In this document: positions 5,495-59,664 of the stretch, one piece after another
Position numbering within the stretch: the stretch's first letter is position 1
How the letters are laid out: every line of letters starts with the position of its first letter
DNA from: Phoronis australis
Lineage: Eukaryota; Animalia; Phoronida
NCBI GenBank assembly: GCA_002633005.1
Contig: NMRA01000228.1
Coordinates: 53,881 to 117,880 of the forward strand
Direction of reading: 5' to 3'
Length of the DNA stretch: 64,000 nucleotides
Notes under the pieces: model-generated
Database searches by the model: none
The model's input: only the letters and a program-made list of their open reading frames with translations
What the model was told of the DNA's origin: nothing
Program-made: the position numbers and the translations under genes

Positions 5495-8400
5495 TGTTAC
5501 ATATGTAATCAGGCTCAAGCTTCTTATACAACCGACATTCCGGTACTATCCGGCCTTCTTGACATGAACCGCTATACTGGTAACGCTTACAACGCTAACG
5601 ATGTTTTCATGGAGCCTAGAGCCTATATCATTGCAAGTTTATACTATTTTTCTCATATTACCGTAGAATTCACTGGCTGTTTCTCGTATTGTGTATGACT
5701 GCTTAGCCCATGCTATATTACATGGAATATCTTCATTGTATTGCAAAGTGAACGCTGTATTTCCCAAAACTTATTATTCGTTATATTTGTTTCAGTGAAA
5801 CCGGCCTCGTCGTACAGTAAGCATTCAACATCAACTTTGTTGTGAATAAACGTATCATATCCGACTATCCCGTGTGTTCAATGCTCATTGCTCCTACATA
5901 TATTTTCACATGAATGCTCAAGAAACGACCAAGAGTTTGGACATGAATCCAGGAACAGTGGACGAGTTTCACAATGCCCCTATTAACCTCGATACCGTGA
6001 ATAGGGAGCCAACCGAGCGTGGCCTAAGAACCATTCAACGAGCGAGGAAAGCTGAACTGCAAATTAAGCAAGACATTCCGAAACGACAACAAGAGTTGGT
6101 TTTAGAAGAACTACGTTTGGATGCGGAACGACGCTAGGACAGTATAATATGTTTCAAGCATCAGGAACTTGAGATTCACGCCGCGTTAGCTGAATTGGAA
6201 GCCGGGTTCGATGACATTAGTGAGCAGCATACCCCTCTAGCAACCCTCACAGTTCGCCACTCAATGTATCTGCATCAGAATTTGTGCCCGTATCTTCGTT
6301 ATGTAATCCAGTAACTGTGACTATGTCGACACCTGCTGTGTCTGCAGTGCCTGGGTTCGCATCAGACTTTGTGCCTGTATCTTCGTTATGTGATCCAGTG
6401 ACTGTGACTATGTCGACACCTGCTGTGTCTGCAGTGCCTAGGTTTGTACCTTGTGATCCAGTGACTATGTTGACACAGGCTGCATCCGCCAATACCACAT
6501 TAGCGCCACCTGTTATGAACTGTCATTACAATCCACCGGCTACATCGTCCTCGCCCGCACTGGCGCCACCTGCTGTTAACACTTGTTACTATCCGCTGGC
6601 TGTATCCGTCACTCCTGCATTAGCGCCACCTTCTGTGAACTCTCGCTATTTTATGCCAAGCACCGTAAGCATTTCGGGTATTTTGGACTTCGTTGCTAGA
6701 AGGACCTTGCCTACACCTGAGATAAAGAAATTGAACGGGGATGCAGACCAGTACCGCCAGTTCATCAAGGCGTTTGAAGTTCGCATAGAAAGCAAGCTGG
6801 ATTCCGAGATTGATAAACTTTATTATCTAGAGCAGTATACCTCAGGAGATGCGAATGAACTTGTGCGAAGCTGTTTACACATGCCAACGGACAATGGGTA
6901 CGCCTTGAAAGACATTAATCAATTAATCCAACTTGATCATCCCAAAAATCTTCAAAAACTCATGTCAAAAATGCCTGCGCCTTTGCAAAATAGATGGCGG
7001 CACGAGGCCAGTAAGATTCGCGGCAGATTTACTAAGGATTTTGTGAACTTTGTTTGTGATGAGTCCTTCATTTTTTCTGACCCAGTATTCAGTAAGCGAC
7101 CAACTGGTAAATTAGAGGTGAACATTACCCAGCACCAAACTGTCTCTTGCATATACTGTAACAGCAACCATCGCATAGATGTTTGTAACGCCTTGTGTGC
7201 GAAACCTTACAAGGAAAGACGACAATTTGTGATTGAACGGAAATTATGTTTCGGTTGTTTAAAACCCGGATATTTTTCAAAAAATTGTAGATCCAAAGGA
7301 CAATGCAAAAAATGCAACAAACGACACCCAACCATACTGCACATCGGCGGGTTTGAAGTTCCCAAACGGCAACCCGCAGCAGCCAAACAGAACAAGCGAC
7401 AAGATGACGCTCAACAAGAACGCCGAGATGCGACCACGAACACAGAATTAAGTGACCGTGGAGATGATTGCAGGGGTACATTCGCCACTACGTCATACAA
7501 CACTACAGCAATGATGCTGATCATACCTGTGCGCATCAAAAAGGTGGATTCCGAAGACAGCATCGCCACCTATGCCTTCCTTGAGAGTGGTTCGTAAGGC
7601 TGTTTTGCGACAAATGATCTGTTAAATCAATTGAATGTGAATGGTGTGCCGAGCAAGCTTCAGCTCACAACCATGCACGGACAATCAGAGGCTGAAACGG
7701 AGGCAGTCACTGGACTGCAGGTAGAGGATTTGACTGGCCAAAACGTTACAAACCTCCCTGCTGTATACGCCCGCGACGAGATTCCTATATCTCGAGAAGG
7801 AATTACCACCGCTCAAGATGTGGTCAAGTGGTCTTATTACCTCATATAGATATTCCAGATGACCACTCTGATGTTGACATCGGCCTTCTTATAGGCAGTA
7901 ACTGCGCCAATGCGACTGAACCACTACAGGTTGTGCCAGGCAGAGACGGTGGCCCATACGCGGTGTTGACTCGGCTCGGATGGTTGATCATCGGTCCCGT
8001 TTCCATAGCACTGCAGAACTTGTCAACGCGTGTTATTTCGTGTAACTATGTGTTTATGACGGAAAACCTAACCACAGAAATGACTAGACAACTGTCAATA
8101 TACGACCACATGAAGGATGTCAGTCAAAGCCAGCTCCTTCAGAAATTATTCAAATACGAGTTTTGCGAATACGCTACTAACGAGAAGGACGACGCCGTCT
8201 ACTCCCAAGACGACAGATGATTCATACATGTTGTGAATCGAGGCGTTCAGCATGCAGATGGTCATTGCCCTTTCGAGAGGGAAGTGATACTCTCCCGAAC
8301 AACCGAGAGATAGCCCAATCGAGAGCAAGAGGCCTTAAAAGAAAGTTGTTGAGCAACTCCACCTATCAACAAGATTATGAAACCTTCATGAACGACATTC

Positions 8401-8850
8401 TGAGCAAAGGCTACGCTCGTAAAGTACCTCCCGACCAGAAACCTATGGAAGGCAAAGTATGGTACATCTCGCACCACGGTGTTTACAACTCCAATAAACC
8501 AGGCAAAGTACGGGTTGTATTTGACTGCAGCGCCAAATGCCAGGGGAAAGCGCTAAACGACTGCCTTCTATCTGGGCCAAATTTAACCAATTCTATTGTT
8601 GGTGTGCTTACAAGGTTCCGGGAAGAGAGTCGTAGTCATGATGGACCTAGAGGCCATGTTTCATCAAGTGTGTGTACCGCCACACGACTGGGACTATTTT
8701 CGCTTTCTTTGGTGGCCAGATGGTAATTACAGCGCTGAGCCAGAAGATTTCCAGATGGTTGTCTATCTCTTTGGCACATCGTCATCGCCCAGTTGTGCTA
8801 ATTTTGCACTGCGCAAGACAGCAGATGATTTTGCGTACGATCCAGTGGTT
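5495..8850 (+). mobile_element. Degenerate, 3'-truncated BEL/Pao LTR retrotransposon in UCP4 intron 4, antisense to the host
   Basis: Putative LTR TGT...ACA at ~5495-5898 with AATAAA at 5845; gag with DUF1759-like LYYLEQYTSGDA and three Zn knuckles (CIYCNSNH, CFGCLKPG, CKKCNKRHPTILH); protease TYAFLESGS*; Pao RT motifs [43 protein letters not shown]; stops and frameshifts. Confidence 0.92.
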
Positions 8851-10710
8851 TGCCACTAGGAGGCGCCACAGTAGTTGACGTCATCGGAAAATCATCATCA
8901 GCCATCCTCTTCATAGTAAGAACATACATGCCAATTTTCACAATTATCATTAGAACGGTTTGGTTGATAGAGGGGTGGACGCCAAAAAACAGACTCGAAA
9001 ACAGTAACAAGAGCAACGCAGAGCGTTGAAATGCGCCCACAATTGCACCGTATACAGTATTCTTCTAGGGTTGTTTATTGGTACCATGAAGTGGCCAGTA
9101 GAGGGCATATATGTAGTATGTTGTACTTTGCAAAATGGAAAGGCATGGTCATTGTCTCCTCAATAGGCTAAGGGGCAAAATGTGAGTGATCTTCATAATA
9201 CAAGCACATCCTATACATCAGTTGCTTAAAGCATCACAGAAACATAGAATTAAAAAAAAAATTACCAACATACGAGATTAGCACAGCATTAGAATGCCAG
9301 AAACAAATTTCTACTTGGAACTTTTCCTTCATAGTCACGAAGTAACACAAAGTANNNNNNNNNNNNNNNNNNNNNNNNNNNNNNNNNNNNNNNNNNNNNN
9401 NNNNNNNNNNNNNNNNNNNNNNNNNNNNNNNNNNNNNNNNNNNNNNNNNNNNNNNNNNNNNNNNNNNNNNNNNNNNNNNNNNNNNNNNNNNNNNNNNNNN
9501 NNNNNNNNNNNNNNNNNNNNNNNNNNNNNNNNNNNNNNNNNNNNNNNNNNNNNNNNNNNNNNNNNNNNNNNNNNNNNNNNNNNNNNNNNNNNNNNNNNNN
9601 NNNNNNNNNNNNNNNNNNNNNNNNNNNNNNNNNTACATACCAAATTTCATGAAAATCCGTTCAGGACTTTTGAAGATACAAAGGTAAGCGTAAAAAACTA
9701 AAATTGCCACTAGGGGGCACACCGGTAGTCGGATCCGTCCAAAAGTCGTCATGTTTCGTTGTTACCATCATATAAATATACTTACACAATTTCGTAAAGA
9801 TCCTGCGAACGGCTTAGGAGATACAGCCATAGGCAAAAAAAAACAAAACTGCCACTAGGAGGTGCCACAGTAGTCCAAATTGTCTGAAAATCATCGTCAA
9901 CCGTCCTCTACATAGTAAGCATATACATGCCAATTTTCACAATCATCCTTTGAGCGGTTTGGTTGACAGAGGGGTGGACGCAAAAAACAGACTCGAAAAC
10001 ACTAAAAATGGCCACTAGGTGGCACAAACTATGTCGAATCCATCTGAAAATGGGAGGATAGCGTCATCTTACTAATAGGTGCCTACATACCAAATTTCAT
10101 GAAAATCCGTTCAGGACTTTTGAAGATACAAAGGTAAGCGTAAAAAACTAAAATTGCCACTATGGGGCACACCGGTTGTCAGATCCGTCCGAAAGTTCGC
10201 ACATGCCGTCCCATTCATGAATGGAACATATGTGCCAAATTTCATGAACGTATGTCAAAGGGTTTTGAAGATAGAGCTGCGGACGCCGAACGGACGCCGC
10301 CCGTACGGACGGACGGATGGAGATGACGGCATAATGCGTCCACATATAAATATGTGGGCACATAAAAATGGCCACTACATGGTGCAAACTACATCAAATC
10401 CGTTCAAAAACGGGAGAATAGCGTCATCTCACTAATAGATGTCTATATGCCAAATTTTATGACAATATGTTGTGGATCTAGGGGGCACACCAGAACTCGG
10501 ATCTGTCTGAAAGTTTGCTCATGCCGTTCCATCCATGAAAGGAACATAACTACGTGCAAAATTTCATGAAGATGCGTCAAACATTTTTGGAGCTAGACCA
10601 GCGGACGCCAGACGCCGGACAGACGTCACCCGGACGGGCGCCGCCTCGACAGGCGCCGCCTCGACAGGCGCCGCCTGGACGGAGATATAAGTATGTGGGC
10701 ACATAAGAAA
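8851..10710 (+). mobile_element. Non-autonomous Helentron/HINE-like element(s) with ~150-bp tandem monomers; spans the N gap
   Basis: Recurrent CCAAATTTCATGAA and GCCACTAGGNGGC motifs; 450-bp repeat (9635 vs 10085); (GGAC)n tract at ~10290-10320; 3' stem-loop CCACATATAAATATGTGG followed by CATAAAAA. Confidence 0.65.
9355..9633. other. Assembly gap (279 N)
   Basis: Run of N; further single-N joins at 33617, 55366, 57302 and 59665. Confidence 1.
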
Positions 10711-43246: not shown

Positions 43247-44865
43247 CTAAGTCCGATGTTTTGTGGCCTTTGATTTACCTTTAACCTTTTTTGTTTTTGT
43301 TTTTGTATGCCCTTCATGGTCACTTTTTTCGCTTAATAATGATTTTTTTGAAGAAGGAACGCGGCTTCCGCTCTTGGCGATGGCCAACGATAATCCGGAT
43401 ACTGAGAGCCTGTCTTTACTGGGAACCGGCCTTATTTGTCCATCTAGTGCGCTGCCTCGGCGACGTTTACGAGAGGTTTTCTCGGCTTTGTTGTCTTGCG
43501 TTTGATTGGCGGTTACCAATGAATTTTCTCTGGACGTACAGGGAGTATAGTCGTCCATTTCCAAAGATTTTTGTTGCTCTGCAAACAGCGTCCTCAGCTT
43601 GCGCTCATTGACTATTAATTTCATGTCAGATATTTCTTTAGTAAACGAATATAGTTGTCCGACAGCGTAGTTAACCTCACTAACCTCGGCCTGGTCGTAA
43701 GGCTCTAGTATTTCAAGACAACGTTGTGACACTTGTACTCGCAACTTTTTAAAGCGGAACATCTGGAGCCGTTTGGTCAGTACCTCATAGTTGCACAGAT
43801 TTTTGCAGTCACTCCATTCCCGTACCCGGCGCTCAGCCTCACCCAGCGTCAAGAAGGTTGCTACAAGAACATCGTGAATCTCTTCTGGCACAGGATCAGA
43901 GTTTTTAACTTGTACAATCACCAGCGGATCAAGTGACGTTAGCAGGTTCTTCCTCAGTAGTTCTGTACGCGTCAGAGCTTGGTAAAGTTTTGATACTTCC
44001 TGGATTTCTATTACTAAGTCGTCCGCGTATTCGCTTTGTTCGGCATCTTGTATTGCATCCCGGATTAAATTAGGGTCATCGAGCTCACTAGCTTTTTTCA
44101 TTTCCTCTTTCAACTTCAGCACTTCTAACACGTGATAACACCTTTGAATAACAGTGATATCAAAGTTGGATTGTGATTCGTAATCTGCTTTGTTGGTCTC
44201 GTATTCCTTCAACGCTTTCGAAATGACTTCTTTCTCGTGTGAATCACACGCAAACTTAAGCGTATTTAAGAGTACATTGCACTTCCGTTGTAATTCCTTT
44301 GTTTCCCTACTAACAGGAAGGCACGGTGAAATGTCAGGTGTGGACTCAGAAGACATAATGGTGGGAAGGCACATGTCAACTGGATCCACGTTGTAACCAG
44401 TTGACGACGGTTCTGTCTGATTCTCAGAAGAGCTTGGCTCCGTTTTCGTCGACTCTTTCACCGACTTATTCCTCATCGCACTCACTCTCTGGAAGCGGCT
44501 TTTGCTGCGTCTTTTAGTTAGGAAAAGAGACGACGTTAGTTGTTTGAATGTTTCATTTAATGCTGCATTATGTTTCACAACGTCGAAATTGATCGTCGTA
44601 AAATCACTGACCTCCACAGAGTAGCGTTTAGGATATCCGTAATCACATGAGAGGCGAACTTTGCCCTGCGTCATGCGTTGCTGTTCGCGATGCATTGCGA
44701 CTTGATTTACTATCTTTTCGTATTCGATTTCAAAGACTTCCAGAGCTGGGTCTCTAGGATGTTGCACTCGGTGTACTTCGAATATTCCCGCAAGTATTGC
44801 ACACAAGACCAAAATCACACTCAGCCGTGTTGCCAAATATTGGAAGAAGAGAGAGGCAGTCTCAT
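43247..44865 (-). CDS. Large terminal exon: TM helix, helical-repeat region, dynein-stalk/MTBD-like domain and basic tail; uncharacterised membrane protein
   Basis: Uninterrupted 1.6-kb frame. The listed start is TTG and there is an in-frame stop just upstream, so splicing is needed; phase-1 acceptor ttccgcag|44865 (alternative phase-0 site at 44881); TM LSVILVLCAILAGIFEV. Confidence 0.85.
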
Positions 44866-47226
44866 CTGCGGAATTGGAAAGCTAGGATAACAATTAGTTA
44901 TGTCAATATAGGCGATTACGTATTACTAAGTAAAAGTTACAAGTGTGTCTTTGAACTATTAAAAAGGTAAGGGCACTTTGTGTTTGTTTGCTTCTAGTTT
45001 CCAAGAAACTGAGAAAATGAACAGTATTCCTGCGTGAACCTACTCAGAAGGAATTAAATTCCTGATATAAATTTGACATATCTTTAAACAAATGTCTCAA
45101 GGTAACAGAAAATCTCTCTACAAAAAGTTAAGAGACGAAAGACACAAGATGGATGGTACACGCGAGTTCACTGTTTCAGGCAGATGGCTGAAGCTTGGTA
45201 TGTTGAATTGACGGCTTTGAATATCTTTCAGGACCTAAAAAACGAAATCACTAAATTAACTCTCACATACTTGTCTCAAAGTTTCCCTTGTCATGTTATC
45301 ATGTTTTCGGGTTCTTCCGGTGAAAAGAAGTGAAGGGTCACCTGCCACTGATTTAGAACTGTTCAATTATGTACACTGGAGTATGATAACCCATCAAAAT
45401 GTGTTGGCTTTTTGAAAAACTTTTTACTTGTTGACTCCCTGATCGAGTGACATGTTTGTCACAGTGCTGAAGAATTTGAGACATCGCTTGTGTTCTAGAG
45501 TTACGTATTCTATTATTTACATTTTAGAAGGAGAATAAAAAGGAAAAACGAACAAACAAACAAAAACTTAGTGACAGAGCAACATACTTGGCGAAATTTA
45601 TTTCGCCAAGTAATTACATACATACATAAAACGCCCAAGTTGAGTGTCACCATTTTAGTTGCCAATTGGTAAAAACAGATTGCGAATCTGCAATTAAGAC
45701 AGACAGACGCACACAGACAGACACAGAGAGACAGTGGCTTTTCATATGTTTATATGCTACATCTTTTGACCAGCATTCGTAGTACTATTTTCAGCCGGAG
45801 GACGCTGCAATGATGATTAAAGAAATTTAATCTTAACTGGAGACGATACAGCGACTAATTGGTCGTAACATCTCTTGGAATAGCCTAACAAACCACCTAG
45901 CTACACACTAGTACGCCTTAAAACATGTAAGTATTTAAAATGCTTACAGAGTTACACAACACATTGTCCTCCTGTTGTTTAATTGATCCAGTCAGGTTTG
46001 ATTTGAAGAAAAGTCTCCGAGCAGCCACGAGGACATTAGCGCGGAATCGAATATGCAATCAACCCCCGGGAAGGCAGATTAATGCGCAGCTGTCGGAGAT
46101 AAATCCAAATTGATAAAAAACAGAATAGTACAAGCCTCTTCACTAAAGTCACCGGCGAGTGTCTGGCTGACAACGGCAAGAATTCTGTAGTGTATTTAAG
46201 CTGTATTTCGCCATGAATAGTAGGCTAAAACCGAAAACTGGCCTTTTACTCTAAAAGTTAGGTTTCATACTCCTTACCAAGATAGGATTCCATTTCCATT
46301 ACCAAATCAAGTCACAGACAATTCGTACATGCGCCATGCCATCTCCGAATTTGCAATTTTAGAATTCGTCAACTGAACCACTTTCTTGAGTCCGTGGTAG
46401 TTTCGATCTTCTCGTTGGTTACGATAAAGGAACCCTATCACGGCAAGGAATATTATAAGACCGATGTTATGGGAATACAATAATTAATCTTGTTAAGCAA
46501 GTCGAAATGTAGCGTTATAGCCGCTGCTTGTGGTGAAGATGGTCGTGAAAGCAGGCAATTGAAAAAAAAATTGTTTTAAACTTGCACCAGTGTATGCGCG
46601 CCCGCTGAAGTACCGTTAGAACCCATTGTGTGTCGTAATCAGTCTATTCGGCGCTACTGGCGCACGCGCTTTTTGTCACAACGCCTTTGCGACATGAGGG
46701 CGCTGCCAAGAAACGTACGTCTATTTCCAGACCATACACGTCACACAGATAGTCTAGTTGTTTATGTTACAAACAGTGCATGAACTTGGTCTCTCCCATT
46801 CAACAGTAATCCCCACATTGCGTTTTAGTAGTTAAGCCGACAATGTCTCTTTTAACCTTTCAATGAACTCATCATAGTTGCCCTGCACCTTCTTACTCGA
46901 CGTCGTCTTTTCTGGAAACGGTCTTACTTCATAGTAAGATGCTCATTTAAAATACAAATAAATCAAGAATTTCTTGCACTGAGAACACAGTCGTTATAGA
47001 TTACCTTCATGTGTCAATTTTCTTGGAAATTAGGGACCAACATGAAAGTACACTTACTTTTTTACTAGTTCATACATGTAGGTGCAAGAGTCGTTTCATA
47101 ATCACAAACAGCGGTATGAATTCTTGTGTCTAGTGGCAGCTGCAAGGCTTCCGAGAAATTATGAGAAATTGTGCAATGTACACAATAAATAAATAAGTTA
47201 GAATTTAGTACAAAAACAAAACTCAC

Positions 47227-47535
47227 GTTCTGGAATAATCTCTATGTTTATGTAGGTTGACGACTTGAACTTAGTAACTTTAGAGTTAACCGCCTCGCAA
47301 TAAAGTTTCCCACTTTCTTTGGGATGGAAGGATATAGTGCTTTTTAATTTGCCTCTTGCTATCTTGGGCTCCGCTTTCATAGGACGCCCAGACTCCTGGC
47401 GGAACCTGAAGTATGCACCCGGATTGACATCTGTCGCCTCACAGTGCACGTTAACCAGGGTCCTTTCCTTTAGCTGGAATGTTGTATTTCTTGTCTTTTG
47501 CTTCTCAATCGTCATAAGGAGTTCGCGCGGCCCAT
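47227..47535 (-). CDS. Ig-like (C2-set) domain exon 2
   Basis: VNVHCEATDVNP...SGKLYCEAVN; ttgttaag| acceptor and |gtgagt donor; 309 nt, phase 1-1. Confidence 0.85.
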
Positions 47536-47715
47536 CTTAACAAAACAAATTACATTATTTAAACTGATACCCTACCAAATTGTAATCAGCCTTCTTACTA
47601 ACATTAAACTTTAAAAAAACCATGCATACAATCACTGCATTATTTATCCTCCATCGTATTTTGTGAGAGAAGTTGTCAGACAACGGGTGCTCGTTTTCCC
47701 GTGGTTAATGGTAGA

Positions 47716-47850
47716 ATGATGAAGCGTTGCGTTTGTGGATGTACAACATGAATTTGACCACGCTGTGACTGTTTTCATTTTCCCGAAGCACGTCAGAGAA
47801 GCGCGGATATGGCACGAGTTTGCACAATAAACTCGCGTGTTGGTGGTCTT
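47716..47850 (+). mobile_element. Degenerate THAP-domain fragment in the intron between the two Ig exons
   Basis: MKRCVCGC...FIFPKHVREARIWHEFAQ*TR, frameshifted. Confidence 0.45.
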
Positions 47851-48216
47851 GAATCACTGGCGCTGGGCACCTTCGTACGTCACACTCATATCCGTGAAGC
47901 TAAGGATGTTTCAATTAAGTGTCGTCTTTTCTACTTTCTTGATTTTGAGATGTTGAATTCCCGGTTATGATGTGCTGTTCTGCTAAGGAGTGTTTATTGA
48001 TGCAGACAATGTATTTACTTGTCAAAACAAAACAAATGGTGTTTTACACATTAAAGGGTTCAGAAATTCCCCCAGGCAAGATGGAGGAGAGTTCTATTGA
48101 CGAACAATCTTCTCCATGGAGAATAATTTGTGATAGGAAATATCACTAAGTGTGACTTGATGACGACGACCCTAAGGAACTGGTCTTGCGCCACTCGATC
48201 TCGGTTAGGTACTCAC

Positions 48217-48444
48217 AATAGACTCGTTTCATGACAAAATGAACTTGAAGTTGCGCTCCCTCCTGCACACACACCCATTTCTTGTGCAGCATTTCTCTGG
48301 TTGGGATTATACGCAGCTCTTTGTTGTGGATGGGCATTTGGTCCTTGGAAGATTTCCACCATACGTTACCGTCCAAGTTACAGTAGCAAGTGCGAGGCTC
48401 GTTGGCCACGAAGACTGTGTCATCGTTGCAAGTCAGTTTATCAG
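48217..48444 (-). CDS. Ig-like (C2-set-like, shortened) domain exon 1
   Basis: ttcccag| acceptor and |gtgagt donor; 228 nt, phase 1-1; C..W..LRIIPTRE..KWVC pattern; splicing to the next exon recreates the inter-Ig VYYGP motif. Confidence 0.7.
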
Positions 48445-50613
48445 CTGGGAAGTAACAGAGATGTGGTCAAGAAATATGAATTGCCGTCAAATTTGTAGGT
48501 ATCTACGGACCTAAAATGTGGCGCCAGGAAGTAGCAAAGTAGAGGCCGACATTTGTTCTGTTACTTTCAAATTTGCCCGAAACAAACTTGGTTAGTGTGT
48601 TTTGCTGCATCAACTAGTTAGGACAGAGCCGGGCGGGACGAGATGTTCACAAAACGGTCTCGATCATGTTTATTCACGGGCTGCACTAAAATCCCGCTTC
48701 AGAAGTTAAGGAAATCGTGGAGTGTGACCCCCGGCCTCTGCGGCGAGAGTAATTGTTGATTCATTTGTCGGCGGGAAACAGAAGACTGAAAACGTCCTCA
48801 GAAGACAGAGATGAGACAGTGCAGCTCTACAACTGAAAGAACAAATAGCAAACTTCTCACAGTTCTAGATCTCCGACAGTAAATAATTTATATTCCAGTA
48901 GAAATCTGAAATTAGTGGAGAGAAGATGAGGGGAGGGTGAAAAAACGAAGGTCTTCATTCCGCTAGTTACCTGATGAACTCATGGTACCATCCGTTCTGA
49001 TTCGGCATCCAATATGCCCAATGAAATTGTTGGAAGGCACCAAAATTCACTGAACCACCAGCATTTTACGAGACTTGTTTATCACTGGCAAAAAATAACA
49101 CTTATGCATTACTCGGCGTTTGTAGATACCAGCATAAAGTTGTTAAAAAGGCACACACAGAGCGCCTTTCGATTTTTTGCACGTAGACTACTTATTAGTG
49201 TTAAATACTTTTTTCAAATCTGTATTTCACATTAAGAAATTTTATGCGATTTGTGAAGGCATACGCACGATGCCTTACGGGCATGGGGTATATCTTAGTG
49301 GTTTGAGGAGTTGATCTTCCTCAATAAATTTTCAGAATTTACGCGTGTTCATACCTGTAACAGCCTGCTATGACTTGACAGTTAAACCCGTACTTCAAAA
49401 AAACACAGATTTTTTCTAAAACAGGACGCCGGCGGGTGTGAAGTAATTCTTGGTATCATCACTAGGCCCACTCTGTCTATCCTGGACCTCATTTAATGTA
49501 TAATCTATACTGCAATATGATTTTGTGTAACAAATTCCGCCCAGAATGTATGGACGGATATCGTTGCTACCTACCCCGTTTCAACAACCTCGAGTGTCAC
49601 GTTATCGTGAAAATGACGTTTTTCTCGAAATCATCGCTCGCTAGCTGGTTCCCTGCGTGCTTAGCCCAGCCAGCCCGCAGGTAATGGGTATCACGCAGTG
49701 GCACGCGCTTTAGCATTGGTCGATGTAACCTTGGCAGTCATTGCATGGTTAGCTTTACAACACCCTGAAAAAATGGCGGACTGTGAACGATTTTTAGCCT
49801 TGTCACGCAAGTGGCGTCGCAACAACTATTTCGTTTCTGCAGTGATGTTTAATATCCGCGTGCTTGGAGCACATGCATGCCAACACACATCTGGCCTATT
49901 TAACCGGTGTGTTATTCATACTGTATGAATACAGGACACTATCGTAAACAAAAGCCATCGACCGTGAGTTGAAAGATGCATTCCGAAAAGTCGCAATCAC
50001 AATTTCTAGGCTTCGCATTTCCTGAACATAAATTTTAAGCACCGATTTGTCTGTACAACAGAACACATTTACACTTCAGTCCATCAGTCATGCCAGTTTG
50101 TTTGCGTAAAGCGCTACCTATTGAGAATTCGACTAGCCAATCAGAAACGCCGGTGAAAAAAGTTTCCCGAGGAAAATAAGTGATACCTGAGAGATACCTG
50201 CGTGCTGGCGCGGCTACCACCCCATCTAGCGGCACGCAGGGAACCAGCGAGAAATCATCGAGGCTATTCAAATTCAATTAAGAAAAGTGCCAGTAGCTTT
50301 TACTGACATTAATTTTGTGTAAGTTTTGTTTTACCCAAGTCACTTTAATACCCAAATAGTTCCAAAGCGTCAACCGTACGTTTACAAGTAGGCTACCGAA
50401 GCCGTGTCTCCCCAGGACTAGCCGGATGCCGGGACGCGCCGGTGTTTTGTTACTCTTTCACAGTGTTACGAAAGGTAAAATTTTGTTATCATAGCTTCTC
50501 ATTGGTTTAAGTAATGAAACCGACGTCATAACATTTAGCCATTCCCATTGATTGAAACCAGGGAAACCTCTTTCAGTTACGTATGGTGACTACTTTTGAC
50601 TTGAACAGCTGCA

Positions 50614-51349
50614 ATTTATGCTCGGAATATGTCCCGAAAATAATAGGTGCGTCGCAAGCTCCGTTTCCAGAGATACAAAGGAGACCGTGTATAGGCGATA
50701 TAAGGTCATTTATTATGACTGATAAGGTACAGAAATATGAGAGTACAAATAACATAAAGATAAAATAATAATATCTGGAAAGATGGGCAATAAAAAGCGC
50801 CAGCACTCAGGTAAGAGGAACTACCCAAAGTAGAGGGTGGTAGAGCGTGGGAAAAATGAAGAGAGATTAGCTCGAACCTAAGTGCTGCAAAGCGAATTAC
50901 AGATGGCAGGAAATATAACTTTCTTGAGAACAAAGGAGCCCTATGACACGTGACAATCATCAGCCTATGGGAGCCAGGAGCCCAGTGACCAAACTCGTGG
51001 CAGTAATACAAACGAACCAATAGTGAGGCTGGAAATGGAATGTCCTAGTGCCTTGAGTGCAGGAGGACCGCATGCGAATCTACACAAGGGGTTATTGGAC
51101 CAGTCCGAAAGAGGGACGAGTCCATATTCTCGCATAAATATATTTAACGAGTGAAATATCATTTATGCTCGGAATATGTCCCGAAAATAATAGGTGCGTC
51201 GCAAGCTCCGTTTCCAGAGATACAAAGGAGACCGTGTATAGGCGATACAAGGTCATTTGTTATGACTGATAAGGTACAGAAATATGAGAGTACAAATAAC
51301 ATAAAGATAAAATAATAATCTCTGGAAAGATGGGCAATAAAAAGCGCCA
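50614..51349 (-). mobile_element. Two 189-bp direct repeats (50614-50802, 51161-51349) around a 358-bp spacer; probable DIRS/Ngaro split-repeat end
   Basis: Copies differ at about 3 positions; share AGATGGGCAATAAA..GCGCC and ATATAACTTTCTT with the relic at 60280-62230. Confidence 0.55.
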
Positions 51350-52147
51350 CGAGAGATGTTGAATTTATTAAAACGGGTAGTGATCGAAGTAAACAACGTC
51401 GATCCCGTAGCTAAGCCCAAACAAGTACAGTGCATGGAAGTGGTGGTGATATGTTCGATAAACTTCCGACCAAGCATGTGCATTGATGCCCACACACGGA
51501 ATTCCGTGTGTGGTTCATCATGGCTCCACAAGGCCACTTTTCAGTACGTGGCACTGTGTCAAGAGGGTGGTGTTTTGTGCGGGCGCAGCCATGTTTCAAG
51601 CCAGACTTACAAACATGGTTTTCTACATCTCGGTGTTAGGATGACGTACTGTTCAGAAATATATTTCTTGACGACAGACCTGAGTTATTTGTGCCCAAGT
51701 CGGTTGTGAACATCCTCATTATTGTGCTTTCCGAGTTCTTTCATGAAAGTGTTTTAAGACTAAAGACTGAAATTCGGTCGTACACCTCCACTTCACAAAA
51801 GTAATGTCATATTTTTGCATCTCTACTTTGGTTAGATTTATTTGTTTATACCAAGCCCAAATTCTTAGCTTTTGTCACGTTTTTCAAAGAAACCAACTTT
51901 GTTGTAGACCCCTATTGCTGTGAAACAGTTCTCAACTTATGTCAGTATTAGATGGGTGGCAATGCTTGACGCATAAAATGACAAGCCAATTTCTTGAGCC
52001 TGGGTTGTATCATGTAGACACAAGACAATGTAGAATGAAGCTGATGAATTTATTTCACGAAGGAAGCGGTCTAAATCACAACTCGTTTCTGTCGTAAGGT
52101 TTGTGCCATTTTGAAGTCGACGGTATGGGTCGTATAGTCTGGCTTAC

Positions 52148-52207
52148 CGTAAGACATTGCGTTTGATGCTGTCACAAGGGCACATACGAGGAGACATTTG
52201 ATCCAAT
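52148..52207 (-). CDS. Putative signal-peptide exon of the Ig-domain membrane protein (xWIKCLLVCALVTASNAMSY); ATG-containing exon not located
   Basis: Strong acceptor ttttcttctttcag| and donor |gtaagc; 60 nt, phase 1-1; hydrophobic core with an S-N-A cleavage-like site; joins in frame to 48444. Confidence 0.55.
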
Positions 52208-52579
52208 CTGAAAGAAGAAAATAGATAGCCGATGATAATGCCGTAGTGGGAATGTAGCCTACCGAAATTTTTAATAGGACTTGAATTTATAATTAGGTTT
52301 CGGTTGGCAGGACAATGTGAAGGTTCTACAGCGATAAAACCACAATACGCTTCGAGAATACTCAAACATATTAGCACACGAAATCACTGAATACTGAATA
52401 CAGGACCTGAGAACATTACTGGTGTATGTCTTCGATAGTCAGCAAAACACATTGTGGTAATCCCGAACTGTCTGTTTTTAAAGTCATACACGCGCAACTG
52501 AGAACAACATCTCACGAAGAACGCATATTTTGTTAACATTTTTGGGAACATAGTTGAATCCGGCTATATACCTCATTCT

Positions 52580-52746
52580 CGCAGTCGCCATTTTAAAAGT
52601 GAGCCTCTTTTTAGGTTTTAAAAACAATGCACTCTGCGCTTAATCAAAATGCAAAGCGTGATTTTTTTCGCGTGCCCCGTTATACTGTCTCAAATGCATT
52701 GTTTTTTAAACTTAAAAAGAGGCTCACTATTAAAATTGCGACTGCG
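52580..52746. repeat. Inverted repeat/mini-MITE (~55-bp arms)
   Basis: cgcagtcgccattttaaaagtgagcctcttttta / taaaaagaggctcactattaaaattgcgactgcg. Confidence 0.8.
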
Positions 52747-53567
52747 TAAATAAGATTTATGGTAAGCCTACAAAAAAAAAATAATAGAATAAACGGATTC
52801 CCCAGGCCTACTTTTTGGCAGGCTCTAGAGTGACGGCAATCGGTGGAGCGTCGACTGAGACCGGCTGAGGTACTTCGTATTTTGATATCATGTGTCAAGG
52901 ATTTGCATGTAGCGTTGTGTCAACGTAATTAAAAAGTTCTGTTCGCTAACTTATGAAGTAAAGTAGACTACAAGAGAGATAAAGTAGTTATAAAAATGAG
53001 TCTCTTAAACACACCAGTGCATATGATACGATGCATCATCGCCGACAAAAATCGCTTCGTGTCTTCTTCTTTCGATACGAACCTTTGTACAATCAATTTA
53101 CAAGGCAACCCAATATAAAAAATGAAAGGAGACACAATGTGCAATTCAAGTGTCAGGGATTAATAGTCAATTGATCCGTAAGGTATATGCGAAGGGCACC
53201 CTGGAGAAAAGGTATTCCAAGGTGTTTGGGCCCTCCCCATAACATATTCAGACTGAATTCGGGCTCATGTACGTTGTTTCAGTCTAGTGGTAGCATGTTA
53301 CGGAATTGGAACATCGGAAGCATTTGTTTGGGATTGTCTTGAAATAAAAAAATTGGCTTGCACATTATCATGAAAAGCGTGAGAAAATCGCAATAGTATA
53401 TGGTAGTATGTCAATTTCACCGTGTCCAAAAAAAGAACATTTTGATGATGTAGTAGTGTGGCGGGACAAACCTTCAATATAAAAATAGGTTATTTAAATT
53501 CGCTCTATAGTCCAACTACAGGGTGCGATTTTTTCCTTTTCAAAGCTCTTTTGATCTTTCAGACGCA

Positions 53568-54225: not shown

Positions 54226-57200
54226 TGAGACATAACGATGAGAAATCTACAAACCAAAACCAAGGTACAGATAGCCAATGCAAAATTAATATTGTACCAG
54301 TCCAAATGCTGCACTAATGAGCATCCGTCATGTATGATACGTTTGGTACCAAACAAGGCCACACTACTGAGACTTTTTAGAGTTAACTGTTATTTTGTTT
54401 TATTTTTTCTAGCATTCTTAACACTGATAGCTACATCCTGGCTATTAGATATCCTTAAAAAGCTAGTGCAAGGTTACATCGTTAAATTCAAACTGGGATA
54501 AACCAAGTTAATTAGCTTGGTCATAGCGGATCAGGGGGTCCGCCCCCCTCCCGTTTCCTTTGGTTTTACTGATATCAAATCTAGAATTTTCAAGTTGTTG
54601 ACTTGGATGTCCCTTTTTTAAAAAATCCATGATCCGACTCCCCCACCCTTTTAAAAAATTCTGGATCCGCCCGTGGAGTTAAAGAAATTGGGCAGAGGTT
54701 CGTTCCTATCTCTGTCAGGATTACGGTAAAAATTCGCTCTGTAGTATATCTGATTACTGCTGCTCTGCCCAGGCTTTTGCTGAGGTCGGAGAATAACGTT
54801 GCACCACCTAGCACCCAATATTACGCCAACTTAGCTGACGTCCTCTAGTCGTAGCTATGTCAACGCACGTTGCTGCTGCTCCCACTCAACTCTAGCTAAT
54901 GGGCATGTCGATGGTACAGTCATGAGCTATCGATTTATTCGGAGATTGGAATGGAGTCGCCAAAGGTGATCATAGAAAATTGTTACGCTCACAGAAGTCT
55001 TGTTTTTGGCTTGAAAAGCGTAGTATTGGGATATTCGCAATACAAAGTCATTCAGTTTAAAGAGTTCCCACCATGCATTTTCTTACTTTTTCAGGTTTCA
55101 GTTAGCTAATATGAATCGAATGCCATAAAATCTTGCTAAATAGGCACTTTTATGCCAAATATTGGCAACTTCTTTAATTTTGAAGAAAAATTACTTATTT
55201 CTAAGTTTCCCGCCAAATGATGCAATGGGTGGAAGATGGTTGGCCGCTTGACAATCATTTGCATTGTCGGAACACTGCAGGTCAGAAGACAATGACAATA
55301 TTAGGCGAGAATTGGACAATTATTATGCAGTCCGACAGGAGAGTGGATACGGGCACTTATACTCANACGGTAAAAATTCGCTCTGTAGTATATCTGATTA
55401 CTGCTGCTCTGCCCAGGCTTTTGCTGAGGTCGGAGAATAACGTTGCACCACCTAGCACCCAATATTACGCCAACTTAGCTGACGTCCTCTAGTCGTAGCT
55501 ATGTCAACGCACGTTGCCGCTGCTCCCACTCAACTCTAGCTAATGGGCATGTCGATGGTACAGTCATGAGCTATCGATTTATTCGGAGATTGGAATGGAG
55601 TCGCCAAAGGTGATCATAGAAAATTGTTACGCTCACAGAAGTCTTGTTTTTGGCTTGAAAAGTGTAGTATTGGGATATTCGCAATACAAAGTCATTCAGT
55701 TTAACAAGACTTTTCTCCCATTGGGGTCTCTATAAGAACGAAAGTAACGTAAATCTGGCCAACAGAAGTTGCAATTAAAATAGATAATACATAGGCGGAT
55801 TTAGGGGGAGGGAGGGGCAGGGGGCACGAGACCCCCCAATTTCAAGTGTTAAAGTCGGAACACGGCGCAATCGTAACGGAACTATGGCTAAGTATAGGCT
55901 CTCCCGCGATATCCCAGGCGACCGGCAGTGGCGCTGCACACCACGACTCCGTTTCCGTCGTCTGCTCCACAGTGCAATGAAGAACATTACTTCATTTTTT
56001 AAAGAAAGTGGAAGCTGAGTGGCGATGAAAAAACAGAAGCTGCTGGTAAGATGTGAATTTTAATCGAAGCCTTAGTGAATCACTCAGAAACTCATAATTC
56101 TCTCTTTTGTCAAACCTTAACTTAAGACGATTTCCAAAGGCGTCATTAATGTCAACACGAAAAACGGATTTGGTCTTTTGGGCAATTGAAGACTATTTTA
56201 AACACAACAAATTTGTTACGAACCGATTGCAAAAAAATTAAAAGGTGTAATAAGCATTACAAAAATAAGTAGGTTTCGCGCGCAAACGCTGTGGACAATA
56301 AGCAAGTAGTTCTTTTCATCAGTAGTAAAGCGTTAAATCGTGGTGATGTAGTGGTAAAGCACGCGCGCTCAATCCGCCAGGTTTCAGTAACGTTTGGTGG
56401 ACTGCATAATATTTTCTTGGTTCAGAAACCAAACATCTCCAAAAAGAACCAGCTTAAGTCCACAATTTATGTTAACCAGTAGTGCTTTCATTGTCAATGA
56501 CGTCAGATTCACGGTAAAATACTCTGTTCTAAAGGACCCTAAAAAGATACTAGAACCCATTTTGATTCAACCAATCCTCTTTCTGTCACCTAGTGCTAAT
56601 GGATCATTGGCGTCAAAGTTGAAAGGTAAAAGCAGGAATGAAAAAAAACTCATGTCACCTATTTCACAAATTGAACCCGCGACGGAACAACTGAGGTAGC
56701 AGTTTCCCACACGGTTGCCGTGTAATTATCTAAAAGCCGCGGCGTAGGTCACGCGTGCCCGTTTAGATGAGACCTTGAAAGGAGTCTTCAAATTTTCCTT
56801 CAAACTTCAGTTGAGGTTGTCGAGGGTTGCAGAGCATTAATTCGTTTTAGAGAACTGGACGACTAAAGTCGTTTTTAGTCTGTTAGAAATTATGGTATCC
56901 GATGGAAAGCAAAGCGGAACATTTTCAGGACACAAATGTTTTATGTAAAATTTAAAATTCTCTGCAGGACCGGCAAAAATATATCCAAAACCAAAACTTC
57001 TCGCCCCAGGAACTATAAGTCATTACGTCAGGACCCGAAAATTAATGTCAGGGCAGAATTTTTTCAGCCGCTCTTCAGCTTGGCGCGCTTTCGCAGTTAC
57101 ATTACGGGGTTGACTCGGAGTTCATTAGCTGTCTCGCGCCGAGAAAGTAGCCAAAATCATGTGTTCTCACACGGCAACATCAAAGTAATCTCGCGAAGTC

Positions 57201-57899: not shown

Positions 57900-59664
57900 A
57901 TTGAGAGTGCCAGTGTAATTTCCGTTCAAAATAGCGGACAGTGAACCCCCGGAGAAAGTAAGAAGAGGACCTTATGGAAAGTACAAAGTAAACTCATCGA
58001 GTGCTGTACCGAGGCAAACTGCGTGGAGATGGAAATGTAAGAATAGTGCAAAAGCAGCTGAAGGGACGAGCGAAACACACCACGACTCTATCGACCCAGC
58101 TTGCGGGTCGGACCTTGCTGACAGCTGACGAGGCCAATAATGTCAATGACGAGCCGATCTTTGATGAAACGTGCGAACCTGAGGCGAACAGTGCCGACTC
58201 AGAAAATCAAATGATATTTAGTGGAACTCGGATCACGCTTGCTGTCAGCCATCTCCTGTTACTAAGCTTTGTTATGCGACACGGGCTGTCTCATGAAGCG
58301 CTTGGTGACCAGCTAACATTGATCGAGTTACATCTAGTTGTACCGAATACCTTTAATACTTCAAAACAGGCATTTCATAAATTCTTTGAGAGCTTGAAGA
58401 AGCATGTGCGAAATTTTTTTTATTGTTCGCACTGCCACCACTTGAATGGGGAGGATAATAATGGCCACTGCACGATAACGGCTTGTGGTAAGAAGTTACC
58501 AAAAGACTCGAGTATGGCGGAGTATATCTATCTCTCAAGGACCAGCTTCAAGAAAAAATCATTAGTAAGTACTTAATTTCAATTTGTGTGGAATACATCA
58601 TGAAGATCAGAAGACTACCAAACTTATTAGAAAGCAAAACTAGTAATGTCTATGAGACCGTTTCACTGCACCTTTCTAATCACGAACAAACACCCCTTCA
58701 ACATATGCTAACTTTAGTGCCTGTTACACTTAGAGGGAGAGTCACAATAGTAGAGCACATTAAAGCTGTCTTTTCAAGTTGTTTATGTCATCATGCACTG
58801 CTAATAATTTAAAACAACTATGTCAGCTCTAGAACAATTCTGCAAAATGACTTAAGCTGTGGATTCCACAAAATGCACAATTGTTATGAAGTGTTCTTGT
58901 TTTTTGTATACTTTTTGTATTAGACTGCCATTGTTAATTGCGACTTAAAAATGGATGTGCTGTATTGTTGAAAAGGAGTTTACAAATAATTGTTCTTTTG
59001 TTGCCTTCACTATGTAATGTATAGATATTGTCAACTTATCTGCTTGGTTTCTGTAAATAAATAATGATTAACATAAACATACATGTATGGCATTTGTATG
59101 TATCGTACTTAAAACAGTTGATGACACAACATTAATTAATTAAGGTCAATGGGCAGATAATGTATTTTTGCATGTTGAGGACAAAGTAAGGCAAGGAATT
59201 AGAGTTTCATCCCTGACATTATGTGTTGGGGTTGATTTTCTATTTCGTTATGCTTACTGCTAGCACGTTACATTGTTATTAATTATCAGTCACTTCTGTT
59301 TTGAGATATAATTAAGTCCTCTGCTTGTGGATTGGATCACATGTAAAATATTTGAAGAGATTTCAGTCATCATTCAGTCACATCTAGAAAGTTTAAGATA
59401 ATTCAGTCATTAATCAGTCCTATGTTCAGTGATCCAAAGAGATTTCAGTCATCATTCAGTCACACTTTGAAAGTTTAAAGACAATTCAGTCAATGTTCAG
59501 TCACATCTAATGCATTCTAAGACTATTCAGCCATAATTCAGTCACACCACCTGTGTTAGACATTTGTTCAGTCACAGGTTGGTCATGACTGAATTGGTCA
59601 GTCACTTATCAGTCACAAATCAGTCATGACTGAACGATCAGTCATGACTGACTGTGGGTAAGGG
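57900..59664 (+). mobile_element. EnSpm/CACTA-like transposon relic: truncated transposase N-terminus (58001-58576) and right end with TCAGTCA subterminal repeats
   Basis: LLLLSFVMRHGLSHEALGDQLTLIELH...FFYCSHC..C..C fits animal CACTA transposase N-termini; roughly 20 TCAGTCA/TGACTGA units; terminus GTAAGGG. Confidence 0.7.

Follow-up and report, generated by a model that had tools for sequence, protein, structure and literature searches.

A candidate immunoglobulin-type surface protein of Phoronis australis with a predicted dynein microtubule-binding-domain-like fold in its tail

The minus strand of a 64-kb stretch of the Phoronis australis genome (64,000 nucleotides of contig NMRA01000228.1, referred to here as the window, whose positions serve for all coordinates) carries a five-exon gene, and the 741-aa protein that it encodes, ATG exon included, is laid out as a predicted signal peptide, two immunoglobulin (Ig)-like domains, one hydrophobic helix and a tail of 510 aa. 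Models and family profiles support the presence in this tail of a six-helix fold like that of the dynein microtubule-binding domain (MTBD), set between CC1- and CC2-like helices, and by sequence comparison the tail is one diverged representative of a module common among invertebrates, which in other proteins is already found behind different ectodomains and transmembrane (TM) helices. We favor, at a probability of about one half, the reading that this is an Ig-type surface protein in which a shuffled-in module of MTBD fold forms a static scaffold for docking beneath the membrane, its tubulin face having decayed.

The gene model began as a prediction of four exons with AG/GT ends, all in phase 1, that join without a stop, and the sequence bears out their coordinates (Table 1), ends, phase and open frame. 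The stop-free frame of the last exon runs for 544 codons, compared with 230 for the longest frame in 200 shuffles of the window, and the coding exon with the ATG, which has an in-frame stop upstream, was revealed by the joint 52407>52207. Transcript data come from three raw-read runs (X1 to X3) and one contig set (X4) under the same species label; the X4 contigs miss the exons and carry no weight either way. The joint 52407>52207 is crossed by 30, 10 and 1 reads in X1, X2 and X3, respectively, and the three joints of the original prediction, including the linkage of the Ig exons to the large exon, have junction reads in X1 and X2 (18 and 19 at 52148>48444, 22 and 13 at 48217>47535, 6 and 2 at 47227>44865, which is in frame). 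First mates in X1 and X2 lie on the plus strand, as most stranded libraries give for a minus-strand transcript, and stranded depth over exon 5 is continuous at about 12-32. The gene is expressed in two of the three raw-read samples; exons 3-5 are without read depth in X3, and expression therefore differs among samples. Short reads report each junction separately and not one molecule with all five exons. An mRNA for the membrane form with five exons is very probable. A tblastn search found no second copy of the gene within the window.

Splicing also proceeds to an acceptor at 44881, which takes 1 read in X1 and 3 in X2 (4 of the 12 reads at donor 47227). This choice shifts the frame and brings a stop just ahead of the hydrophobic helix, and the resulting 208-aa product, a signal peptide followed by the two extracellular domains, is predicted to be a secreted two-Ig-like-domain protein; junction-dependent decay of its mRNA would be unexpected because its stop falls within the last exon observed. 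A minor joint within intron 4, 45948>45234, is represented in X1 alone, by 4 reads that begin at 2 positions, and may mark an internal transcript that encodes the tail without Ig or TM parts, as a 482-aa frame that starts at an internal Met and is preceded by short open reading frames.

The signal peptide was judged by eye and the TM helix was called from Kyte-Doolittle hydropathy, which exceeds 1.6 at aa 213-231 alone and reaches a maximum of 2.38, so that a single-pass type I membrane topology is predicted. The second extracellular domain carries C131/C179 and a G-x-L-Y-C motif, matches Pfam Ig_2 below the cut-off of 27 bits (19.3 bits, E 0.0014), and has the Ig domains of FcRL5 as its best PDB match, at E 3.8e-15 summed over six repeats and E 1.3 for the best single domain; these values weakly suggest an Ig-like fold. 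The first domain (76 aa) has no Pfam or PDB match, and is provisionally termed Ig-like by pattern, from its Cys/Trp spacing and from what we take to be C2-set motifs. Of the proposed order of signal peptide, Ig, Ig and TM helix, the type I topology is thus predicted from hydropathy, the second Ig domain is weakly indicated, and the first is without database support.

Searched alone, the tail matches neither Pfam MT (PF12777) nor dynein in Pfam or PDB sequence searches, and sub-threshold Pfam matches of the tail to ER, RIG-I_C, MLKL_N and Swm2 were rejected. With aa 388-647 as the query, exhaustive searching by phmmer recovered 62 homologous proteins at E<=0.001, 56 of which were aligned with the phoronid protein after six had been set aside as very long or very short (P0001, P0010, P0026, P0048, P0051 and P0054). 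At a threshold of E<=1 the profile of this alignment retrieved 82 PDB sequences; the top 50 are either MTBD constructs or dynein heavy chains, with the yeast MTBD first at E 1.2e-11. AlphaFold with the same alignment gave a model of high confidence (predicted local distance difference test, pLDDT, 95.7; predicted template modeling score, pTM, 0.83); in single-sequence mode aa 506-741 stayed unresolved and fold searches gave generic helices alone. In VIA-align comparisons of the model the top five rows are dynein stalk/MTBD structures (Z 12.3-16.5) and unrelated rows reach at most Z 8.5; dynein matches overall, with 6KIO, 6RZB, 6L4P and 5AYH as reference MTBDs, span Z 11.8-16.5, among them 5ayh at Z 16.5 (root-mean-square deviation, rmsd, 7.0 over 148) and 6l4p_B at Z 14.4 (rmsd 2.5 Å over 123 residues). 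Foldseek also ranks dyneins at the top, the best at E 0.003 and none reaching 0.001. The family core residues Pro528, Leu543, Gly544 and Trp553 are kept, and several family-invariant residues are changed. At 741 aa, with no AAA Pfam match and short flanking helices, the protein is not a dynein heavy chain, and a shared fold shows no function. Papers on an 'MTBD-like' part of TTLL11 concern another motif and were set aside.

The fold also occurs in solved chains without a motor. A radial-spoke chain, 7jtk_C, matches the model at Z 12.4 (rmsd 6.8 over 167), and a chain of Toxoplasma intraconoidal microtubules, 9ya2_L, does so at Z 9.6 (rmsd 3.3 over 124). From its length and numbering against PMC12819142, 9ya2_L is probably ICMAP2; the main text of that structure paper neither uses the term 'microtubule-binding domain' nor names a dynein-like fold (PMC12819142), and PMC10774369 reports no recognisable domain in ICMAP2.

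The relatives of the tail place it in a family. The best E value among the 62 homologues is 2e-16, at best identities of 20-36%, and their C-terminal module consists of a helical repeat followed by an MTBD-like domain with the pattern PP..VH..M.AT..LLG...W. Profiles built without the phoronid sequence score it at 75 bits for the MTBD-like domain and 36 bits for the helical repeat, so that the module pattern is present; the repeat profile reaches E 3.6e-13 at aa 448-504 and just E 0.2 at aa 403-425. The same domain profile gives 43 bits for a DNAH11-like dynein, the sole true dynein compared, and the tail therefore resembles the family more than it does dynein. PF12777 itself is matched by 7 homologues at E<=0.001, 3 of them above the cut-off. 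KY Ig-like domains, as in KY/hillarin-like proteins, are present in 18 of the 62, 14 of which also have a transglutaminase core; 16 start with the myristoylation-type motif MGxxxS; and hydropathy peaks higher than 1.9 occur in 7, which leaves 6 with a clear TM helix once P0035 is dropped for its Ala-rich N-terminus, with a weaker helix seen by eye in P0022. An extracellular Ig domain is matched by Pfam in none of the 62. Within the range of 2264-5000 aa that it covered, a profile search with the alignment returned one dynein; other Ig-bearing members would be expected at 450-2200 aa. Looking up 30 of the 62 gave an organism for 20, all invertebrate animals (sponge, rotifer, leech, molluscs, brachiopod, lancelets and tunicates). 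In a quick tree of the module the TM label changes 3 times among 8 rows, a pattern still compatible with a single origin, and the phoronid branch of 1.48 is the longest non-outlier. Word-based protein searches with the tail and a metagenome scan returned no relative, and the phoronid protein is absent from the ESM Atlas, where the homologue P0003 retrieves mollusc clusters and MT-domain structures. What had been proposed as a dynein-like module in this gene is thus upheld as an MTBD-like fold by profile, model and structure matches, and it is shared with the family and not unique to the gene. Family architectures vary (P0001, P0048, P0021, P0046 and P0059): a Pinctada KY-like protein has three copies of the module, a Branchiostoma KY-like protein has a CARD ahead of it, and the N-terminus of a sponge member is weakly EF-hand-like.

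Whether such a fold could hold a microtubule can be judged from its contact surface. Six salt-bridge residues of the yeast MTBD, K3117, E3122, R3124, R3152, R3159 and R3201, are listed in PMC7042235. Mapped through the profile alignment, they correspond in the phoronid protein to P516, Q521, K523, S554, N561 and E599, so that one of six charges is kept (K523) and one, the H6 Arg, is reversed (E599). Across 52 complete homologues the charge is kept at E3122 in 50, R3124 in 45, R3152 in 15, K3117 in 10, R3201 in 4 and R3159 in none, the glutamate retained in 50 of the 52 being the Gln of the phoronid protein; two charges are present in 27 homologues and at least 4 in 6, over a family range of 1 to 5 of 6. 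The net charge of H1, H3 and H6 together is -4, second lowest of 53 rows, compared with a homologue mean of +0.6. A dynein-like microtubule grip by this protein, and with it the suggestion that the receptor is coupled directly to microtubules, appears doubtful because just one of the six tubulin salt-bridge charges is kept.

According to the favored reading, binding of an extracellular partner would fall to the two likely Ig domains, and the MTBD-like module would have been shuffled in behind an Ig-Ig-TM front end, as suggested by introns that are all in phase 1. Its CC1- and CC2-like helices would not be drivable between affinity states because there is no AAA ring, and because the tubulin-facing charges are lost the tail would instead use its helical repeat, MTBD fold and basic end to draw in partners of the cortex or the cytoskeleton. 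As a secreted ectodomain, the product of frameshifted splicing would compete with the membrane form for its ligand. The frequency of membrane anchoring among relatives (16 of 62 with MGxxxS, 6 of 62 with a clear TM helix) and the presence of the fold in non-motor chains such as 7jtk_C speak for a scaffold of this kind. Several points weigh on the other side. The predicted TM helix, called from hydropathy, contains an Arg; the alignments through which the residues were mapped have 10-25% identity; true dyneins vary at the contacts too, the axonemal DNAH6 and a DNAH11-like dynein keeping 4 of 6 each; Lys557 in mid-H3 could substitute as mid-H3 residues do in Dictyostelium (PMC7042235); and the C-terminal 81 aa, with a net charge of +18, could restore microtubule affinity.

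The main rival is a direct microtubule tether, in which the MTBD-like domain, with help from the basic tail and from receptor clustering, would bind cortical microtubules and tie adhesion sites to them. The MTBD fold is retained with high confidence, the best-kept surface pair of the family is the dynein H1 Glu/Arg contact, at which Lys523 still keeps the Arg charge, the motorless same-fold chain 9ya2_L sits on microtubules, and the basic C-terminus would add to binding. We nonetheless consider a tether rather improbable given the single remaining contact charge, the H6 Arg-to-Glu reversal and the acidic interface, when neutralising each basic contact residue of the yeast MTBD costs more than 2-fold in affinity (PMC7042235), and given the long phoronid branch. 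A young, lineage-specific chimera whose tail is decaying without selected function, the working product being perhaps mainly the Ig ectodomain, would account for the lack of a close relative, for the changed family-invariant residues, for a TM helix and whole tail lying in one intronless exon, and for the one third of junction reads that give a tail-less form. It is unlikely in view of an intact 538-codon frame, the retained core residues and a well-packed model, and the comparison did not include a closely related genome, so missing orthologues weigh little. A separation of the Ig exons from the large exon, raised with the original prediction, is seen in part, in the 44881 acceptor and the 45948>45234 joint, and reads at junction 4 (7 and 5) are fewer than at junction 3 (22 and 13). 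That the two parts mostly work apart, as a secreted two-Ig protein and a cytosolic tail-only protein started from intron 4, is very unlikely, however, since the in-frame joint is the commoner (8 of 12 reads), the intron-side depth is 1.5-3 compared with about 12 in the bin holding the exon start, and the internal form has several upstream ATGs.

Table 1. Positions in the window of the exons, protein features and minor splice sites of the gene
Feature	Position	Strand	Basis
Exon 1, coding part, ATG at 52416	52407..52416	-	Joint 52407>52207; in-frame stop upstream
Exon 2, remainder of predicted signal peptide (aa 4-23)	52148..52207	-	Joints on both sides; peptide by eye
Exon 3, first extracellular domain (aa 24-99)	48217..48444	-	Joints; Ig-like by Cys/Trp pattern alone
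Exon 4, second extracellular domain, Ig-like (aa 100-202)	47227..47535	-	Weak Pfam Ig_2; PDB FcRL5 match
Exon 5 (main acceptor), TM helix, whole tail and stop (aa 203-741)	43247..44865	-	Joint 47227>44865
Predicted transmembrane helix (aa 213-231)	44780..44836	-	Kyte-Doolittle peak; helix in model
Helical bundle (aa 388-499), second half the family helical repeat	43976..44311	-	pLDDT 94-98; repeat profile
Dynein-MTBD-like domain with short CC1/CC2-like helices (aa 500-640)	43553..43975	-	Family profile, AlphaFold, structure matches
C-terminal tail (aa 661-741), basic (net charge +18) and likely disordered	43250..43492	-	Model, composition
Alternative acceptor 44881, 16 nt upstream; stop 44864-44862	44862..44881	-	Joint 47227>44881; translation
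Minor GT-AG joint within intron 4, possible internal transcript	45234..45948	-	4 reads, 2 starts, X1 only

Within the gene, position 44313 differs from the assembly in all reads of X1 (39 of 39) and X2 (16 of 16), which corresponds to V387D and reflects either an allele or an error in the assembly; a variant at 44648 is silent and one at 44059 (D472N) is minor. A 195-bp fold-back element resembling a miniature inverted-repeat transposable element lies at 52566-52760, 150 bp upstream of the ATG, and draws repeat-derived reads. Elsewhere in the window, broken plus-strand frames at 6224-8723 include a gag-like Cys/His stretch, with motifs that are presumably those of a BEL/Pao retrotransposon, and plus-strand frames at 57992-58809 contain a CxxC pair and, we assume, resemble DNA-transposon proteins; neither region has a Pfam match above the cut-off. 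A 338-bp direct repeat (54723-55060 and 55367-55704) is 99.4% identical, and an assembly gap lies at about 9350-9640, the window holding 283 N.

Full-text searches of the literature open without subscription brought up no account of an Ig receptor with an MTBD-like tail, nor of this module in KY/hillarin-like proteins. No Ig superfamily (IgSF) protein of this architecture came up in those searches or among the 62 homologues. Automatic structure-based InterPro annotation of these domains may already exist. The gene combines domains in a new way, and the family of membrane-tethered, motorless proteins of MTBD fold to which its tail belongs is apparently undescribed. Adhesion receptors are usually linked to microtubules through adaptors. 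A bolder and distinctly tentative idea is that, from sponges to tunicates, invertebrates have a motorless MTBD family tied to the membrane by lipid or TM helix, and that the phoronid protein would be the first IgSF receptor to hold microtubules adaptor-free at the surface, tuned by its secreted form. If true, building a dynein-type tip into a receptor would offer a new means of pinning microtubules to the cortex; even without such a grip in this protein, the findings indicate that membrane-anchored, motorless proteins of MTBD fold form a family widespread among invertebrates, of which the literature searches gave no description. The MTBD-like domain is about 120 aa, and members with 1 to 5 of the 6 contact charges offer a natural series for a binding assay.

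Among known systems, the dynein stalk and MTBD (PF12777 and the reference structures above) share with the phoronid tail a predicted six-helix fold between two stalk-like helices, with homology detectable through the family profile; the phoronid protein differs in having no AAA ring, a short stalk, one of the six salt-bridge charges and no direct Pfam or PDB sequence match. The solved motorless chains (7jtk_C and 7jrj_I of the radial spoke, 9fqr_Xl of the bovine sperm axoneme and 9ya2_L) likewise have the MTBD fold outside a dynein motor, but they are soluble axonemal or conoid proteins, whereas the phoronid protein is a predicted surface protein. Its closest sequence relatives are the KY/hillarin-like proteins (PF01841 and PF23265) and small proteins with an MGxxxS start, which have the same repeat and MTBD-like domain near the C-terminus. 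Hillarin is located at the axon hillock and works with septins (PMC3081291). In comparison with the KY/hillarin-like proteins, the phoronid protein has no transglutaminase or KY Ig-like Pfam match (exons 3, 4 and 5), is anchored by a predicted TM helix, bears an extracellular Ig-like pair and has a more diverged contact surface. Uncharacterised membrane relatives, in Styela clava (XP_077966891, VWA and TM), Branchiostoma (XP_066272931, MS4A-like; XP_066263927, mucin-like) and Adineta (CAF0857834, multi-pass), resemble it in having a membrane helix with the module 150-420 aa downstream, and carry other ectodomains. Two-Ig type I IgSF proteins, such as FcRL, CD22/Siglec and nephrin-like C2 sets, have a signal peptide, one domain per phase-1 exon and a TM helix. 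The phoronid protein is predicted to have the same layout, with a short and unmatched first domain and a second domain that resembles the Ig domains of FcRL5, but in place of their short tails with immunoreceptor tyrosine-based inhibition or activation motifs (ITIM/ITAM) or PDZ-binding ends it has a folded, MTBD-like one.

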